Below are positions 1,560 to 55,579 of a DNA stretch of 64,000 nucleotides, in pieces (positions within the stretch are counted from its first letter, which is position 1; every line of letters starts with the position of its first letter). Source of the DNA: an uncultured Clostridia bacterium. GTDB lineage: Bacteria; Bacillota; Clostridia; Saccharofermentanales; Saccharofermentanaceae. The notes beneath the pieces are model-generated. The model was given only the letters and a program-made list of their open reading frames with translations. It was not told the origin of the DNA and made no database searches. The stretch is from the NCBI GenBank assembly GCA_947302815.1, contig CAMYWO010000001.1, forward strand, positions 42,637 to 106,636, in the 5' to 3' direction. A program made the translations under genes and the position numbers.

Positions 1560-3283
1560 TTAGACGATTATTGAAATCAGTACGAGAGTACAAAAAACCG
1601 TCGATCCTCGCTCCGGTCCTTGTCTCCTGCGAAGTCGTCATGGAGGTACTGATGCCTCTTCTGATGAGTAAGCTGATCGACAAGGGTATCGAGAAGAGCA
1701 ACATGAACTATGTGTGGGCGATGGGTTCGCTGCTTCTGGTGTGCATGTTCATCTCTATGGCATTCGGAGCTCTATCCGGAAGAGAAGCGGCAAAGGCCAG
1801 CGCCGGTTTTGCGAAGAACCTGCGTCATGACATGTTCCACAACCTGCAGACGTTCTCTTTTTCGAACATCGACAAGTTTAAGACAAGCAGTATCATTACA
1901 AGATTGACCACCGATGTTACAAATGTACAGAACGCATACCAGATGGTGATCCGTATCGCGGTAAGAGCCCCGATCATGCTGATCTTCGCGATGTGTGCGA
2001 GCTTCTATGTGAATCCGAAGGTCGCCCTGATCCTTCTGGGTATCGCGCCGGTCCTTCTGCTCGGACTGATCATCGTGTTCCGCTATGCGCATCCGATCTT
2101 CGTACGTATGTTTAAGAGATTCGACGTTATGAACAATGTTGTTCAGGAGAATGTAAGAGGTATCCGCGTAGTAAAGTCCTTCGTCCGTGAAGACTACGAG
2201 ATCGAGAAGTTTACAACGGTATCGAATGAGATTCGTAATGACTCTGTTAAGGCTGAGCGTGCGATCAACTTCAATGCGCCGCTCATGATGGCAAGTGTTT
2301 ATACAGCGATGCTCCTGATCTCCTGGATCGGTGCCAAGCTTGTCGTAAACGACGAGATGACCACAGGACAGCTGACATCGATGTTCTCTTACACGATGCA
2401 GATCCTGATGAGCCTGATGATGGTGTCCATGATCATCGTTATGCTCGTTATCTCCAAGACTTCCGCCGAGCGTATCTCCGAGCTTCTCGATGAGACGCCT
2501 GACATTACGAATCCGGAGAATCCCGTCATGGAAGTGAAAGACGGATCGATCGATTTCGACCATGTATTCTTCAGCTATTCCAAGAAGAAAGAGAAGAGCT
2601 GTCTGATGGATTTCGACCTTCACATCAAGTCAGGTGAGACCATCGGCATCATCGGCGGTACCGGTTCCGGTAAGTCTTCCTTTGTTCAGCTGATCCCGCG
2701 TCTTTACGATGTTACCGATGGTGATATCAAGGTCGGCGGTGTGGATGTAAGAAACTATGACCTTGACGTCATCCGTGACAACGTTGCCATGGTACTTCAG
2801 AAGAATGTCCTCTTCTCCGGAACCATCAAGGACAACCTCCGCTGGGGTAATCCGGATGCGACCGACGAAGAGATGATCCAGGCATGTAAGATCGCGCAGG
2901 CTGACTCGTTTATCAGTGCTTTTCCGGAAGGATATGACACATATATCGAGCAGGGCGGTACGAACGTATCGGGCGGCCAGAAGCAGAGACTCTGTATCGC
3001 CAGAGCGCTTCTGAAGAAGCCGAAGATCCTGATCCTCGATGACTCGACAAGTGCTGTCGATACCGCGACAGATGCGCAGATCCAGAAGGGCTTTGCCGAG
3101 TATATCCCGGGCACAACGAAGCTCATCATTGCGCAGCGTATTTCCTCAGTTGAGAACGCCGACCGCATCATCGTTATCGATAACGGCAAGATCAATGCCG
3201 TCGGAACTCACGAAGAACTCCTTGCAGGTAATGAGATCTACAAAGAAGTATATGAATCCCAGAAGAAGGGAGGTGATCAGTAA
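1556..3283 (+). CDS. ABC exporter, fused permease/ATP-binding subunit (heterodimer partner 1)
   Basis: 575 aa with six N-terminal TM helices. Walker A GGTGSGKSS, signature VSGGQKQR, Walker B ILILDDSTSAVD. Confidence 0.93.
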   Translation: MIRRLLKSVREYKKPSILAPVLVSCEVVMEVLMPLLMSKLIDKGIEKSNMNYVWAMGSLLLVCMFISMAFGALSGREAAKASAGFAKNLRHDMFHNLQTFSFSNIDKFKTSSIITRLTTDVTNVQNAYQMVIRIAVRAPIMLIFAMCASFYVNPKVALILLGIAPVLLLGLIIVFRYAHPIFVRMFKRFDVMNNVVQENVRGIRVVKSFVREDYEIEKFTTVSNEIRNDSVKAERAINFNAPLMMASVYTAMLLISWIGAKLVVNDEMTTGQLTSMFSYTMQILMSLMMVSMIIVMLVISKTSAERISELLDETPDITNPENPVMEVKDGSIDFDHVFFSYSKKKEKSCLMDFDLHIKSGETIGIIGGTGSGKSSFVQLIPRLYDVTDGDIKVGGVDVRNYDLDVIRDNVAMVLQKNVLFSGTIKDNLRWGNPDATDEEMIQACKIAQADSFISAFPEGYDTYIEQGGTNVSGGQKQRLCIARALLKKPKILILDDSTSAVDTATDAQIQKGFAEYIPGTTKLIIAQRISSVENADRIIVIDNGKINAVGTHEELLAGNEIYKEVYESQKKGGDQ

Positions 3284-5247
3284 TGCCGCCGCCGAGAGGA
3301 GCACGTCCTATGAATCGGGAGGACATGAAGAAGAACCCGATCGACAAGAAACTGATCAAGAGACTTATGTCTTATCTGACAGGCAAATACAAGGTATTAC
3401 TGGGCATCGTTATCTTCTGCATTCTGGTAGCCTCTGTCACTTCCGTTTTGGGTAATATGTTTATCCGAAACCTCATCGATGATTATATCGAGCCGCTTCT
3501 GATCAGCGGAGATAAGGATTTCTCCGGACTGGCCAACTGGATACGGACCGTCGCCATCATCTTCGGATTCGGCGTACTGGCCAACCTCTTCCAGGGACAG
3601 ATTATGCTCGTGATCTCGAATAACGTGCTGAGAAATGTGCGTGACGATATGTTCAAGAGTATGCAGAAACTGCCGATCTCTTACTTCGATACGCACTCGC
3701 ACGGTGACGTGATGAGTCATTATACCAACGATGTTGATACGCTCCGCCAGATGATCTCGCAGAGCTTTCCGCAGATGATCTCTTCCGCGATCACTATCGT
3801 TGCAACGCTGGTAGGTATGATCATTACCTGCTGGCAGCTGACGATCGTTGTACTCTTCGGTACCTTTACCATGATCTTCCTGATGGGAAAGATCGGCGGC
3901 AAGAGCGCCAAGTACTTCATGAAGCAGCAGGCATCTCTCGGTGATGTCAACGGATACATCGAAGAGATGGTCAACGGCCAGAAAGTCGTAAAAGTATTCA
4001 CATATGAAGACCGCTCGAAAAAGGCCTTTGATGAAAAGAATGAAGAACTCTGTGACAATGCGACGAAAGCGAATATCTTCGCCAATATCCTGATGCCGAT
4101 CATGGGCAATATCGGTAACGTCCTGTACGTGCTGGTCGCCTTCATCGGCGGTTTCCTGGCGATCGAGTGCGGTGTCTCCGCAATCTCCGTCGGTGTTATT
4201 GCTTCGTTCCTGCAGCTGACCAAGGCGTTCGTTATGCCGGTATCCCAGGTATCGCAGCAGATGAACTCGATCATCATGGCGATGGCAGGTGCCTCCCGTA
4301 TTTTCAAACTTATGGATGAGACACCGGAGGACGATAACGGATATGTTACCCTCGTTCACTGCAAGAAGGAAGGCGACAATCTGGTCGAGGTTTCGGAAGA
4401 CGAGGCGCTCTCTTTCAAGCGTGCTCATGGCGGAAAAGATTCCTTTGGCGGAACATCTTATGTCTGGGCATGGAAGCATCCGCATCAGGACGGTACGCTG
4501 ACCTATGCCGAGGTTAAGGGCGATGTAAGACTCTTCGACGTTGACTTCAGCTATGACGGCAAGAAGCAGGTCCTCTACGATATCTCGCTCTACGCGAAGC
4601 CGGGTCAGAAGATCGCTTTTGTAGGTGCGACCGGTGCCGGTAAGACCACGATCACGAACCTGATCAACCGCTTCTACGATATTGCCGATGGTAAGATCCG
4701 TTATGACGACATCAACATCAATAAGATCAAGAAGGCGGACCTTCGCCACTCGCTCGGTATCGTTCTTCAGGACACGAACCTCTTTACCGGTTCGGTCATG
4801 GAAAACATCCGTTACGGTAACCTGAAGGCGACCGATGAGGAGTGCATCGAGGCGGCGAAACTTGCTAACGCACATGACTTCATCAGCAAGCTCCCTCAGG
4901 GTTATAACACAGTTCTTACCGCCAATGGCGCGGAGCTCTCGCAGGGCCAGCGTCAGCTGATCGCGATCGCGCGCGCCGCGGTTGCGGACCCGCCGGTCAT
5001 GATCCTCGACGAGGCGACCTCCTCGATCGATACACGTACCGAGGCGATCGTGCAGCGTGGTATGGATGCCCTGATGGAGAACCGTACAGTATTTGTCATC
5101 GCACACCGTCTGTCCACAGTACAGAACAGTAAGGCGATCATGGTGCTCGAAAACGGCCACATCATTGAGCGTGGTGACCATGAGTCCCTCATCGCCGAAA
5201 AGGGTAAATACTACCAGCTCTATACAGGTGCTTTTGAATTAGAGTAA
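3283..5247 (+). CDS. ABC exporter, fused permease/ATP-binding subunit (heterodimer partner 2)
   Basis: 654 aa; the start overlaps the upstream stop (TAATG). Walker A GATGAGKTT, signature LSQGQRQL, Walker B VMILDEATSSID. Carries an insert of about 60 aa before the NBD (KKEGDNLVEVSEDEALSFKRAHGG...). Confidence 0.93.
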   Translation: MPPPRGARPMNREDMKKNPIDKKLIKRLMSYLTGKYKVLLGIVIFCILVASVTSVLGNMFIRNLIDDYIEPLLISGDKDFSGLANWIRTVAIIFGFGVLANLFQGQIMLVISNNVLRNVRDDMFKSMQKLPISYFDTHSHGDVMSHYTNDVDTLRQMISQSFPQMISSAITIVATLVGMIITCWQLTIVVLFGTFTMIFLMGKIGGKSAKYFMKQQASLGDVNGYIEEMVNGQKVVKVFTYEDRSKKAFDEKNEELCDNATKANIFANILMPIMGNIGNVLYVLVAFIGGFLAIECGVSAISVGVIASFLQLTKAFVMPVSQVSQQMNSIIMAMAGASRIFKLMDETPEDDNGYVTLVHCKKEGDNLVEVSEDEALSFKRAHGGKDSFGGTSYVWAWKHPHQDGTLTYAEVKGDVRLFDVDFSYDGKKQVLYDISLYAKPGQKIAFVGATGAGKTTITNLINRFYDIADGKIRYDDININKIKKADLRHSLGIVLQDTNLFTGSVMENIRYGNLKATDEECIEAAKLANAHDFISKLPQGYNTVLTANGAELSQGQRQLIAIARAAVADPPVMILDEATSSIDTRTEAIVQRGMDALMENRTVFVIAHRLSTVQNSKAIMVLENGHIIERGDHESLIAEKGKYYQLYTGAFELE

Positions 5248-5486: not shown

Positions 5487-6005
5487 ATGCCGACTATTAT
5501 TCGAGACAAAAAAGTGGAGAATCGCGGCCGTAAGGTTAAAGATATCAAAGATGAAAGATTCGGTCATCTGGTCGCGATCGAAGAGACGCCGGAGCGCTTT
5601 AATGGCAAAGTGATCTGGCTGTGCCGCTGTGACTGCGGGAATACGATCAAGATCACGTCCCACCGTCTTCTTCATACAGAGATCAGTAACTGCTTTGACG
5701 AGAACTGTCCGTATCGTGACACGACCCGTAAAGTCCTGAAAGAAGAGGACTTCTCGGGGGAGACGCGCCGCTGTTCTTCGGCAATGGAAGATATCACCGG
5801 TCAGGTGTTCGGCGATCTTACGGCCATCAAGATGACAGGCATCAAGAGCGGTAAGAATCTCCAGTGGTACTGCAAGTGCAGCTGCGGCCGTGAGATCAAA
5901 GCTTTCGAGCGTGATCTCATTCGCGGTATCAAAACCGATTGCGGTTCTATCCGTCATCGTCCGGGTATGCCTCGAATTGCACAGAAAAACATGAAAAAGG
6001 CGTAA
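5487..6005 (+). CDS. Hypothetical Cys-rich protein with an internally duplicated module
   Basis: Start taken at MPTIIRDKK (AGAGG just upstream). Two copies of the module FG-L-AI...(W/Y)-C-(R/K)-C-(D/S)-CG...I/L...CG: RFGHLVAIEE..VIWLCRCDCGNTIKITSHRL and QVFGDLTAIKM..LQWYCKCSCGREIKAFERDL. No family assigned. Confidence 0.5.
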   Translation: MPTIIRDKKVENRGRKVKDIKDERFGHLVAIEETPERFNGKVIWLCRCDCGNTIKITSHRLLHTEISNCFDENCPYRDTTRKVLKEEDFSGETRRCSSAMEDITGQVFGDLTAIKMTGIKSGKNLQWYCKCSCGREIKAFERDLIRGIKTDCGSIRHRPGMPRIAQKNMKKA

Positions 6006-6139
6006 TTTGATATAGGCAAATTGCTGTTACCCTTCAAAAAATTGAGAAAATCATTCTGAAAAATTCGCAAAAAAGTGTTTTCAAGAAAACACTGTAAGTG
6101 TAAAATTTTTACAGAAATACAAACTGGAGGATTTTTTCT

Positions 6140-52582: not shown

Positions 52583-53119
52583 ATGGAAAGAGTTTCGGAA
52601 ACACTGGTAAGTCGTAAAGAAATCGAAGCGGCGGTTACCCGTCTCGCCAAAGAGATCTCTGAAGATTACAAGGGAAAAGATCTGATCGTGGTCGGTATCC
52701 TCAAAGGAGCAGCGGTTTTCCTCGCTGATCTGATCCGCAAGATCGACTGTCCCATGATCATGGACTTCATGCAGGTTTCAAGCTATTACAACGGTACCGT
52801 CTCGTCCGGGAACGTCAAGATCAAGAAAGATCTGGACTACGATATCTCGGGCAAGGACGTCCTGATAGTGGAAGATATCATTGATTCCGGCGTTACCATG
52901 CAGTGCCTGAAGAGAGAGCTTTTCTCGAGAAATCCTAACAGCATCAGGGTCGTGGCGGCTTTTGACAAGCCTTCCCGCCGTACTGTGGATTTCAGAGCGG
53001 ACTATATCGGCATCGAGGTGCCGGATAAGTTCATCGTCGGGTACGGTCTGGACTATGCGGGAAAATACAGAAATCTTCCGGACGTATGTGTGCTTGAAGT
53101 TGACGGAGGTGACAAATGA
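52583..53119 (+). CDS. hpt: Hypoxanthine phosphoribosyltransferase
   Basis: 178 aa; PRPP motif [13 protein letters not shown]; [18 protein letters not shown]. Confidence 0.93.
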
Positions 53120-55155
53120 GTCAAACAGAAAAAAGACCAAAACGGTCATTTAGCGGACTGCCGTTCTATCTCGTATTGATCGTGATCCTGATCGTGGCGT
53201 CCTACTTCTTCCTGAACGGTGATTCGGGAAAGAGTACTTCCCTTTCGGAAGCGCTGAATATCATCCAGAGCAAGGATACTGTTGCGGAAGACGTTGTCCT
53301 CAACGGCAATACGCTTTCGTTCAAGTATATGGATGCAGAGACCGGCAAGAAGAAGGAAGTCAGTAAGAAAGTTCCGTATGATTCGCAGGATCATGTACTG
53401 CAGATCCTCATGGATGCGGAGAAGGACGGCGCGATCGAATCTTTCGAGTATAAGCAGCCGACTGATGTATCGGCCATTATGTCCGGTATCATGATCGTAC
53501 TGATGATCGCCGCGATGATTTTTATCGTCTGGATCAATTTCTCCAGAAACCAGGGCGAAGGCAGATCCGCCATGAACTTCGGACGAAGCAAGGCGAAGCT
53601 CCATGACCCGTCCAAGAACAAGGTCAACTTCGCAGATGTTGCCGGTGCCGATGAAGAAAAAGAAGAACTTGCGGAAGTTGTTGACTTCCTGAAGAATCCG
53701 AAGAAGTATTCCGCACTTGGTGCGAAGATCCCGAAGGGTATCCTCCTTCACGGTGCCCCGGGTACAGGTAAGACATTGCTGGCCAAGGCTGTAGCCGGTG
53801 AAGCGGGTGTTCCGTTCTTCAGCATTTCCGGTTCCGACTTCGTAGAGATGTTCGTCGGTGTCGGTGCCAGCCGTGTTAGAGACCTCTTCGACAGTGCCAA
53901 GAAGAATTCTCCGTGTATCGTATTCATCGATGAGATCGATGCTGTCGGCCGTCACCGTGGTGCCGGAATGGGCGGCGGTCACGATGAGCGTGAGCAGACC
54001 CTTAACCAGTTGCTCGTTGAGATGGACGGTTTCGGTCCGAACGAGGGCGTTATCGTAATTGCAGCGACCAACCGTGTCGATATCCTTGACCCGGCACTTC
54101 TCCGTCCGGGACGTTTTGACCGCCGTGTATCGGTAGCCCGTCCTGACATCAAGGGCCGTGCAGATATCCTGAAAGTACATGCGAAGAATAAGCCGTTCGA
54201 GGACGATGTTGATCTTAAGGAAATCGCTAAGATCACTCCCGGTTACACAGGTGCCGATCTTGCTAACCTTCTGAACGAAGCAGCTCTCCTTGCAGCAAGA
54301 AGAAATGCGAAGAAGATCAGCAAGGCGGATGTTTCCGAGGCTGTATTCAAGGTAATGGTCGGTCCTGAGAAGAAGAGCCGTGTCATCACCGACAAGGAGA
54401 AGCGCCTGACCGCTTTCCACGAAGCAGGACATGCGATCGTACTTCGTACTGTATCCGAGACAGAGCACGTCGAGCGTGTTTCCATCATCCCTGCAGGCGG
54501 TGCCGGCGGTTATACCGCGCACAAGCCGGATGAGGATATCTATTACACCACAAAGAAACAGTTGATCGATTCGATCATGATCTCCCTCGGCGGACGTGCC
54601 GCAGAACAGATCATCCTCGGCGAGATCAGCACAGGTGCTTCTTCCGACCTGCAGCACTGCAACGGCATTGCACGTGAGATGATCACCCGCTACGGTATGT
54701 CCGAGAAGTTCCCGAACGTGGTCTTCGACGATGACGATGAAGTATTCATCGGTAAGAGTTACGGTCACACACGTGTTTACAGTGAGCAGTCTGCGGCTGC
54801 GATCGACGAAGAAATCGCACGCATCATTGACAAGGCTTATAACGATGTACTTGATCTTCTTAATGAGAAGATGGTTATCCTCAATGCAGTGGCTAACCGA
54901 CTCCTCGAGAAAGAGAAGATCGAAGGACCCGAGTTCGAACAGATCTATGTCAGCGGCGGTGTGATCCCTGCTTCTGAAGAGACTCCTGCTGAGGAAGAAA
55001 AAACTTCTGTAAGTGAAGAAGAGAATGCTTCCGAGAATGCAGCTCAGACCACGGAAGAAAAGATCGAAGAGACATCGGAGATCGAGAAAGCCGTTGAGGA
55101 GCTTGAGAAGAGAGCAGAGACTTCCGAAACAGAGGAGAAGAAAGACGATCAGTAA
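53116..55155 (+). CDS. ftsH: ATP-dependent zinc metalloprotease FtsH
   Basis: ATGA overlap with hpt. Two TM helices; [18 protein letters not shown]; [10 protein letters not shown]; zinc site HEAGHAI; acidic tail. Confidence 0.96.
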
Positions 55156-55185
55156 TCTGATCAGTTAATTGAATCGAATATGAAG

Positions 55186-55219
55186 GAGCTTGTCTCATCA
55201 GTGAGGCAAGCTCTTTTTT
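55186..55219 (+). terminator. Strong Rho-independent terminator after ftsH
   Basis: GAGCTTGTCTCA (55186-55197) pairs with TGAGGCAAGCTC (55202-55213); loop TCAG, then TTTTTT. Confidence 0.85.
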
Positions 55220-55246
55220 GCTGTGAAAACAGGCGGGAGGGGACCA

Positions 55247-55510
55247 ATTGATATAAGAATGAGATTTCGCATAGTTTTATATCAATGAAAGCAGGCTCTG
55301 ATTGATATAAGAAGGCCTCAATTGACTGTTTTATATCAATTTTGAGAGGTAAATGGAGTCGGGCATTGATATAAAACTATATGTACAAGTGCTTTTATAT
55401 CAATGAAAGGTCTGAAAATTGATATAAAAGCACTATTTCCCGCGAGTTTATATCAATCGGCCTCCAAATCATTGATATAAAATAACGGCTTTTTCCTGTT
55501 TTATATCAAT
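55247..55510. repeat. Array of five 40-bp units, each ATTGATATAA-N20-TTATATCAAT (ten alternating half-sites)
   Basis: Units at 55247-55286, 55301-55340, 55365-55404, 55418-55457 and 55471-55510. Arms are invariant, spacers unrelated. No ORF. Confidence 0.9.
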
Positions 55511-55537
55511 CTGCTGATTGGATGCTGATTAGCGGCC

Positions 55538-55579
55538 AAAATGAATAAACCCGGATGGAAGATGCCTCCCATCCGGGTT
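55538..55579 (-). terminator. Rho-independent terminator of the convergent lipoprotein gene
   Basis: AACCCGGATGG (55548-55558) pairs with CCATCCGGGTT (55569-55579). On the minus strand it is followed by TTATTCATTTT. Confidence 0.7.

Follow-up and report, generated by a model that had tools for sequence, protein, structure and literature searches.

Helically phased arrays of palindromic half-sites in rumen Clostridiales and a candidate PD-(D/E)xK partner protein

The DNA analysed here is a stretch of 64,000 nucleotides (64 kb), referred to below as the window, and belongs to the chromosome of a rumen-type Clostridiales metagenome-assembled genome (MAG). The gene order is rpsF-ssb-rpsR-rplI-dnaB-tilS-hpt-ftsH, followed by an array of short inverted repeats, two convergent genes coding for unknown proteins, spoVG and murC. 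The array, which is the subject of this report, occupies the interval between the intrinsic terminator of ftsH and that of the convergent lipoprotein gene, and belongs to neither of the two neighbouring transcription units. The features of the locus are collected in Table 1. The distance from the T-tract of the ftsH terminator to the array is 27 nt, and that from the end of the last arm to the convergent terminator is 37 nt. The array contains no open reading frame (ORF) longer than 28 residues, and among the window proteins no par or rep gene products were found to flank it. This setting had been described in an earlier reading made from the letters of the DNA (the sequence-only reading), and each part of it is upheld: the upstream gene is ftsH by its two Pfam domains and is followed by a hairpin and T-tract, the convergent gene has its own terminator on the minus strand, the array sits between the two terminators, and no ORF above 28 residues lies within it. 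The label "lipoprotein" is justified by the lipobox in the N-terminus of the 577-residue product.

Table 1. Features of the array locus, in window coordinates.
Feature	Coordinates	Strand	Basis or remark
ftsH, upstream co-directional gene	53116..55155	+	Pfam Peptidase_M41 1.5e-59, AAA 9e-47
ftsH intrinsic terminator, GGAGCTTGTCTC..GAGGCAAGCTC plus T6	55185..55222 (hairpin and T-tract 55185-55219)	+	hairpin search
Left leader of the element, GTGAAAACAGG CGGGAGGGGACCA	55223..55246	+	alignable among orphan copies
Unit 1, ATTGATATAA-N20-TTATATCAAT	55247..55286	.	repeat search
Unit 2	55301..55340	.	repeat search
Long linker, 24 nt; 10-11 nt above the other linkers (13, 13, 14 nt)	55341..55364	.	
Unit 3, ends AGTGCTT-TTATATCAAT	55365..55404	.	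repeat search, copy alignment
Inverted AAAAGCACT pair, 17-bp "alternative" stem over the unit 3/4 linker	55388..55434	.	
Unit 4, starts ATTGATATAA-AAGCACT	55418..55457	.	repeat search, copy alignment
Unit 5	55471..55510	.	repeat search
Right tail CTGCT, common to gene-adjacent copies	55511..55515	+	
Intrinsic terminator of the convergent lipoprotein gene	55548..55579	-	14-bp stem, then T-rich tail
Convergent lipoprotein gene, 577 aa	55617..57350	-	no Pfam family; lipobox IAGC; protein starts MKKMIAILLTLSMITAIAGC

The half-site ATTGATATAA occurs exactly ten times in the window, five times on each strand, and all ten occurrences lie within 55247-55510. In shuffles of the window 0.17 occurrences are expected, and no shuffle reaches ten. 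When one mismatch is allowed in the shorter sequence TTGATATAA, 18 sites are found outside the array against 12 expected, which is near background. The repeat search reproduces the five 40-nt units with spacings of 54, 64, 53 and 53, so the ten identical half-sites and the geometry given in the sequence-only reading stand as described. Two lengths require correction. The arms had been extended to 12 bp in both unit 3 and unit 5; the inverted-repeat search gives 12 nt for unit 5 and 13 nt for unit 3. The stem across the unit 3/4 linker, reported as 16 bp at 55389-55433, is indeed perfect with a 13-nt loop, but it is one base longer (17 nt, 55388-55404 / 55418-55434). The genome-wide motif AAAAGCACT is present as an inverted pair in units 3 and 4 (AGTGCTT / AAGCACT), and the middle of the N20 spacer is T-rich in units 1, 4 and 5. 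The trinucleotides preceding the five units are CCA, CTG, GGC, AAA and ATC. The long linker corresponds to one extra helical turn, and it is found at the same position in all five-unit copies described below.

The window array is, with high confidence, an orphan copy of a non-coding, multi-copy intergenic element of about 290 bp, dispersed in a clade of rumen Clostridiales. A scan of the metagenome collection, in which two successive units with an 8-nt core were required, returned 36 stretches. Of these, 25 have 9-10 half-sites in a span of about 261 bp, and they have a common layout, with linkers between the 8-mer cores of 18, 28, 17 and 17 or the mirror image of this order. The five-unit layout is found in about 17 distinct intergenic insertion contexts in rumen metagenomes, and two contigs carry two copies of the element each. 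If the same-species contig L174 is set aside, the window and the other loci have only the element in common, at 76-87% identity by BLAST; the window proteins give weak, non-syntenic matches to the array loci, and the genes at their flanks are different ones. An essentially identical array is present in three further contigs of the same species, which are hence uninformative. The locus is also found in the MAG GCA_017539575.1, where FtsH is identical and the array nearly so.

Scans of other collections were also made. In the genome collection, the pattern ATTGATATAA-N15-25-TTATATCAAT gave single chance matches in AT-rich genomes and was set aside; among the matches listed, only contigs L010 and L073 of Clostridiales bacterium Firm_16 were informative. 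In L073 two arrays adjoin each other (2102-2410 and 2416-2667), with arms TGGCATAAGA and TGATATAAGG, respectively. In both the spacers are N20 and the period is exactly 53 bp. Their presence side by side suggests that two specificities coexist in one genome. The scan of viral contigs revealed no arrays, only single sites, mostly in giant-virus bins. A single ATTGATATAA-N22-TTATATCAAT site is conserved in phage contigs of 49-58 kb (L118, L119, L123, L124, L129, L131, L139, L143 and L146); it is probably unrelated to the arrays.

Comparison of the copies shows which part of the element is conserved. When 15 copies are aligned, the divergence is 2.3% in the columns of the arms and 37.1% in all other columns of the element. 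Only 22 of the 150 half-sites are variant, and the changes fall almost exclusively on the two outer bases, which defines the selected core as TTGATATAA; each of the five palindromic units then reads TTGATATAA, N20, TTATATCAA. This contrast bears out the earlier proposal that selection acts on the half-site itself, under a strong pressure that is either purifying or homogenising. The accompanying statement that the spacers are unrelated is correct inside this one array, but not across homologous copies, where the spacers correspond position by position at about 63% identity. The number of units can apparently change by recombination between arms: the array in L167 (865-954) is a two-unit derivative of the L153/L172 copy, in which units 2-4 were deleted exactly between two left arms.

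It is important to compare the window with the orthologous position in relatives. In L208, where the lipoprotein is 66% identical, the spacer between ftsH and the lipoprotein gene is 156 nt long and contains the two terminators only, which represents an empty site. In L210, with a lipoprotein of 64% identity, the ftsH terminator differs little from that of the window, and behind it lies another palindromic array, of irregular build (5760-6100), with arms ATGACCAATA / TATTGGTCAT and ATGACTAAC / GTTAGTCAT and irregular spacers of 9-32 nt, interleaved with GAAAAGCAC motifs. It follows that the window array is no ancient cis-element of ftsH, and arrays are gained and lost in this spacer. An operator or centromere specific to this locus, as had been suggested, does not agree with these two relatives.

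The copies usually begin directly after a terminator T-run, TTTTTTG(Y)T. Hairpins similar to the ftsH terminator (GGAGCTGTCTC..GAGACAGCTCC and T-run) precede at least seven other copies, and the BLAST homology to L153, L172, L167 and L187 extends back to 55182-55183, that is, into the terminator hairpin. The copies located beside the gene described below are without this upstream hairpin. The terminator may reflect a choice of target, tolerance of insertion at such a place, or a hairpin carried by the element. The array lies between convergent genes in 8-9 of 14 loci and in forward orientation after a co-directional gene in 11 of 14. An argument from orientation is weakened by the inversion of the array relative to the gene between L211 and L212. 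No consistent direct repeat was found at the inferred ends of 16 copies as a target-site duplication, and the ends of the element are not sharply defined.

The spacing of the units is a further constant feature. All 56 unit spacings in 14 arrays (51-54, 64, 83-84, 105, 115-117 and 169 bp) deviate by no more than 0.15 turn from a whole multiple of 10.5 bp. The unit starts are thus separated by whole helical turns, which places all sites on one face of the duplex. Helical phasing of this kind would be expected of a DNA array bound by protein and not of an RNA.

The ORFs of all array-bearing loci were clustered in order to find recurrent neighbours. A single family recurs beside the arrays, a protein of about 266 amino acid residues first seen in L010, L155 and L182. 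It has 2,248 relatives in a database clustered at 90%, all named "hypothetical", and 3,422 clusters at 50% identity (E <= 1e-30), nearly all of about 265 residues. The AlphaFold model (mean predicted local distance difference test, pLDDT, 94) shows two long helices with a small sheet at the N-terminus and, at the C-terminus, an alpha/beta domain. The C-terminal domain has profile matches to the C-terminus of PADLOC PDC-S68 (1e-27) and to HEAT_CxxC_PD-DEXK (6e-9). Its best Foldseek matches, weak but consistent, are the nuclease domains of DrdV, Bax1, MunI, EcoRI and XisH, with a probability of up to 0.99 and E ~1e-2. Five residues, E161, D192, E207, H208 and K224, are invariant in the family. 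According to these models the partner protein has the PD-(D/E)xK nuclease fold preceded by an N-terminal helical hairpin, and catalysis is predicted.

In six loci the gene is located just upstream of speE, with protein identities of 53-69%, and a speA-like decarboxylase gene is also nearby in L188 and L203. The retention of one syntenic place over this range of identity indicates vertical inheritance and not an insertion sequence (IS). No full-length protein was found on plasmids, and the phage records contain one weak full-length match (26% identity). Otherwise only the nuclease domain is represented in these records; on plasmids it is joined to AAA or helicase proteins. In L182 (10640-10660) the array-adjacent gene is split by a frameshift beside a T8 run, and it is intact in L211; the frameshift is either an assembly error or the sign of a pseudogene.

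Two short sequences were noted around these genes. The sequence (C)ATATATCATAT(T/A)GCTT lies ahead of the start codons of several family members, at a distance of about 80-100 nt (L196 ~2900, L199 ~2400, L203 ~2400, L211 ~20-40), and it is possibly a promoter or an autoregulatory site of these genes. The conserved, near-palindromic TATATGGTGGTATTATATA precedes speE by about 100 nt and is located immediately past the array or the nuclease gene (L010 ~3190-3215, L155 ~4600-4625, L188 ~4260-4290, L203, L211 ~1400-1425, L212 ~3150-3175), and it may be the promoter or operator of speE.

An array is located directly beside the partner gene in all 11 loci examined (L010, L155, L182, L188, L193, L196, which is irregular, L199, L201, L203, L204/L211 and L212), and the genomic association of the arrays with this protein family is good. 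The array usually starts 30-45 nt after the stop codon of the gene. In most loci the whole array is on one side of the gene, and L201 has arrays on both sides. The architecture is constant: an arm of ATAA type, 17-21 nt, the second arm and 17 nt, repeated every 52-53 bp, except for two cases in which the period is 84 bp. The arms, in turn, are specific to the locus. They read TGATATAAGG, TGATATAA, CTGATATAA, TGATACAA, GTTCTATAAGA, TTCAACAGA, TACGACTAA, TAGGATAAGA and GCCTAAAAC, with the irregular ATTGATTC.

The window copy can be linked to one of these genes. In relatives with the arms of the window, the gene keeps its place just upstream of speE and directly adjoins a copy of the array. Behind the gene for the L182/L211 protein (P0011, P0012, P0138) lies a ATTGATATAA array of five units with spacings of 54, 64, 53 and 54, and the flanks GTGAAAACAG and CTGCT are common to this gene-adjacent array and the window copy. 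An orphan copy 87% identical to the window array (L171) is found on the same metagenomic contig as the L182/L211 gene locus. The protein of L212 (P0010) is 86% identical to that of L182 over the C-terminal 164 residues compared. The array of L212 has the five-unit layout of the window, with T replaced by C in all ten half-sites, which read TGATACAA / TTGTATCA. Of all the observations, this concerted switch of one base in ten sites, which goes with divergence of the protein, points most strongly to a reading of the arms by the protein.

These observations allow us to propose that the window array is an orphan protein-binding array of a system similar to the repetitive extragenic palindromic (REP) sequences and bacterial interspersed mosaic elements (BIMEs) with their REP-associated tyrosine transposases (RAYTs), but served by a different enzyme. 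As a whole this is the best explanation, and we consider its chance to be slightly better than even. The half-sites would be the recognition sites of the PD-(D/E)xK protein of about 265 residues. One protein dimer would occupy each 40-bp unit, and the length of the protein would set the fixed 20-bp spacer, for which the 36-residue helix pair could serve as a ruler. Neighbouring dimers would stand in helical register. The same protein would keep the arms uniform and seed new copies, which would land mostly in intergenic DNA past an intrinsic terminator, often between convergent genes. We hold direct binding of the arms by the protein with moderate confidence, and mobilisation of the arrays by it with low to moderate confidence. 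The protein-binding array that the sequence-only reading had listed as centromere-, iteron- or operator-like is thus the best-supported of its options, although it is not unique to this locus and belongs to a dispersed multi-copy element.

Several points weigh against this proposal. The 11 gene loci were chosen by sequence similarity and not at random, and no member of the partner family is encoded in the 64-kb window, the cognate gene being seen in relatives only. The family has no sequence match in Pfam, NCBIfam or PDB, and the E-values of the Foldseek matches are weak. The covariation of arm and protein is not simple, since the outer arms differ between P0001 and P0003, whose identity is 69%, whereas the same arms accompany proteins with 57% identity. 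The orientation of the array relative to the gene is inverted in L212 compared with L211. Within a unit the half-sites are separated by 28-30 bp from centre to centre, which does not correspond to whole turns. Spread by a copy-and-paste process is argued from dispersal, because neither a target-site duplication nor clear ends were found.

The closest comparison is with the REP system itself. REP, BIME and REPIN (paired REP) elements together with RAYT (TnpAREP) genes are known as "REPtrons" (PMC8266576, PMC5581495, PMC3116915). A REP is an imperfect palindrome of 20-50 nt able to form a stem-loop, and the gene of the cognate HuH/Y1 transposase is flanked by the repeats. The palindromes have a conserved 5' tetranucleotide, usually GTAG (PMC8266576). 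In the present element, as in REP/BIME, short inverted palindromic repeats with variable linkers form tandem copies at many intergenic sites (five pairs here; about 17 loci). As with REP and RAYT, a dedicated enzyme gene lies beside its cognate repeats, usually in single copy, vertically inherited and not part of an IS. There can also be several pairs of enzyme and repeat per genome (P0024 and P0058 have the same MAG locus-tag prefix, J5379), and the two arm types side by side in L073 resemble the coexistence known for REP and RAYT. The inferred maintenance and spreading of the arrays would parallel the role presumed for RAYT with REP, BIME and REPIN.

However, the differences from REP are clear. 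Neither GTAG nor another conserved 5' tetranucleotide is present in the 15 aligned copies. The conserved part is a half-site of 9-10 nt, which itself forms no hairpin, and the element has a fixed 20-bp inner spacer and a 53-bp period of five turns. The copied unit is the whole five-unit array and not a doublet. In place of a RAYT of HuH/Y1 type, the sole gene recurring beside the arrays codes for a PD-(D/E)xK protein, although no search for RAYT was made elsewhere in the genome. Such a partner suggests that double-stranded DNA is recognised rather than single-stranded hairpins. Since it has no GTAG-type tetranucleotide and its candidate enzyme is not of HuH/Y1 type, the element is not a REP/BIME, but it may work like one, through another enzyme and probably on duplex DNA. 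An ordinary REP/BIME had been named earlier as the outcome if the palindrome were scattered together with a RAYT-type gene; the palindrome is indeed found at many intergenic sites, but the companion gene is of another kind and GTAG is missing.

An alternative is that the element is a plain miniature inverted-repeat transposable element (MITE), a transposon that is not autonomous and has inverted repeats at its ends and binding sites for a transposase inside. In this case an ordinary transposase would be encoded elsewhere, and the PD-(D/E)xK gene would be a mere frequent neighbour or preferred target. Several groups of small mobile or modular repeats are known in Firmicutes and other bacteria, such as the Correia elements, the pneumococcal BOX (boxA-boxB(n)-boxC), RUP and the Bacillus bcr1. 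The present element resembles MITEs in being small, non-coding, intergenic and multi-copy with inverted ends (ATTGATATAA / TTATATCAAT), and it resembles BOX in its tandem middle module and variable number of units, for example two in L167. The many copies at unrelated intergenic sites, the empty orthologous site in L208 and the deletion derivative in L167 would also be expected of a MITE. Against this, no target-site duplication was found and no IS has matching ends. No copy was found with a transposase between two ends of the element, and no family except the PD-(D/E)xK protein recurs at the flanks; the associated gene is not transposase-like, and it is mostly one-sided and syntenic, so that an autonomous parent is lacking and the element is not classed with MITEs. 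A passive target would not explain locus-specific arms in the same architecture in 11 of 11 gene loci. The ten internal sites are also conserved almost perfectly, while the remainder has diverged by 37%. We therefore regard the MITE as unlikely, though conceivable.

The mycobacterial interspersed repetitive units (MIRUs) are intergenic tandem units of about 53 bp that are not built of palindromic half-site pairs. The young array of L010 (3313-3650) is similar to them, since each 53-bp unit carries an 18-codon frame, MIDIRSRQSGSLYHRREK, joined to the next by an ATGA stop/start overlap. A reading as mini-ORFs was rejected as not general, because the window units are without start codons.

A second alternative is that the array is bound by another protein of the host, nucleoid-associated, partition or regulatory, and serves at gene ends as a roadblock or in the organisation of the chromosome, with no relation to the PD-(D/E)xK family. 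The helical phasing, the invariant half-sites and the preference for places behind terminators or between convergent genes would fit such a site. In sopC of F, bound by SopB, and in parC of R1, bound by ParR, helically phased tandem repeats are bound cooperatively by an adjacently encoded protein, and each 43-bp unit of sopC has an inverted repeat. The geometry of the present element, with phased tandem repeats and an adjacent gene whose product would bind them, is that of these plasmid centromere and iteron arrays, which adjoin partition or replication genes and form one set of sites per replicon. However, unlike plasmid centromeres, the element is chromosomal, dispersed, and gained or lost at orthologous sites. 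ParA, ParB, ParR and Rep genes are absent nearby, the neighbours in the window being ftsH and the lipoprotein gene, and the fold of the partner is that of a nuclease. Because relatives have either no array or another one at the orthologous position, the array is not a conserved architectural site of this locus. The tight adjacency to the PD-(D/E)xK gene and the concerted switch of the arms with a protein of 86% identity also point away from another host protein, which we consider distinctly unlikely.

The array could also act as RNA: a five-hairpin transcript, made by read-through or from its own promoter, might be a small RNA, a protein sponge or, in the way suggested for REPs, a stabiliser of 3' ends, and the nuclease-fold protein might process it. 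The position of most gene-adjacent arrays 30-45 nt after the stop codon would suit this, as would the presence of cap-snatching endonucleases among the weak Foldseek matches; some PD-(D/E)xK enzymes are RNases. The array also folds far better than its shuffles (z = -8.1 on the plus strand and -7.7 on the minus strand), but these values follow automatically from ten identical inverted arms. The covariation term of RNAalifold is only -0.37 kcal/mol, with compensatory changes in 3 of 63 pairs. In the extension of the unit stems into the spacer 55.1% of cells are paired, compared with 55.8% in shuffles, and the N20 spacers have no self-complementarity beyond AA/TT (z = -0.55 and -0.74), so a unit pairs only by its arms of 10-12 nt. 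The 7-bp extension of the cross-linker stem is broken without compensation in five of the 15 copies, and a compensatory change is seen in none. Structure in the upper stems or across the linker was rejected on these grounds. Rfam 15 gave no match at the gathering score, and only chance-level matches at E up to 1.

The setting of the arrays is also unfavourable to a transcript. The arrays of the window and of L182/L211, which were those examined for this, lie behind terminators; there are terminators on both sides in the window, and in L182/L211 the terminator hairpin overlaps unit 1, with the first half-site in its loop. The extra length of the long linker equals one turn of DNA, and the inversion of the array relative to the gene between L212 and L211 would not be expected of an RNA. 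The multi-hairpin RNA that had been offered as an option thus finds no covariation in homologous copies and no Rfam family, and we regard it as improbable.

Other candidates were tried and set aside. TTGATA as a -35 promoter element has the wrong spacing to the -10-like hexamers, and two weak consensus matches were found against three expected. GGA loops, as in a CsrA sponge, occur in the Firm_16 units and are absent from the window units. A CRISPR array, with direct repeats alternating with unique spacers particular to the locus, is not consistent with repeats that alternate in orientation, and the whole array, including the "spacers", is homologous between loci. Neutral expansion of a tandem repeat without function, for which the near-identical units of the young arrays in L010 and L073 might speak, is scarcely credible, being already contradicted by spacers that have diverged to 37% while the arms stay identical, and by a five-unit layout, with its linker one turn longer, kept at about 17 loci.

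An oligomer seen alongside the array should also be mentioned. The sequence (G)AAAAGCAC(T) is hugely over-represented in the window: there are 17 occurrences of GAAAAGCAC and 25 of AAAAGCACT, where 0.5 and 0.3, respectively, would be expected, and the shorter core AAAGCAC has 37, 18 on the plus and 19 on the minus strand. Examples are found at 2915, 9586, 12355, 16828, 30173, 46326, 55388, 55426, 59154 and 63836, in genes and spacers alike, with a pyrimidine-rich context upstream. The density is 0.62 per kb in array-bearing Clostridiales loci and 0.06 per kb in unrelated ones, a difference of about tenfold. The oligomer resembles a genome signature of the clade similar to a DNA uptake sequence or to Chi. 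Two of its copies make up the 17-bp stem inside the array.

Our search of the literature found no description of this repeat or of its partner protein family. To our knowledge, dispersed palindromic repeats with a dedicated domesticated enzyme have so far been essentially limited to REP/REPIN with HuH RAYTs, mainly in Proteobacteria. A broader proposal, which we advance tentatively and with somewhat less than an even chance, is that a large, vertically inherited PD-(D/E)xK family of gut and rumen Clostridia could be a second, mechanistically independent invention of the REPIN-RAYT type, acting on double-stranded DNA, in which each protein would recognise, homogenise and seed its own phased array and the arrays may form nucleoprotein structures at gene ends. 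If this is true, an enzyme-repeat partnership of this long-term kind has evolved more than once and on a different nuclease fold. It would give the first functional lead for an unannotated protein family of thousands of members. It would also explain a class of repeats that breaks rumen and gut metagenome assemblies, many family members being found on contigs of 1-2 kb. The arms specific to each locus and the constant 53-bp geometry make the specificity directly testable. If these proteins are sequence-specific binders or cutters with "molecular ruler" spacing, they could be of practical interest.

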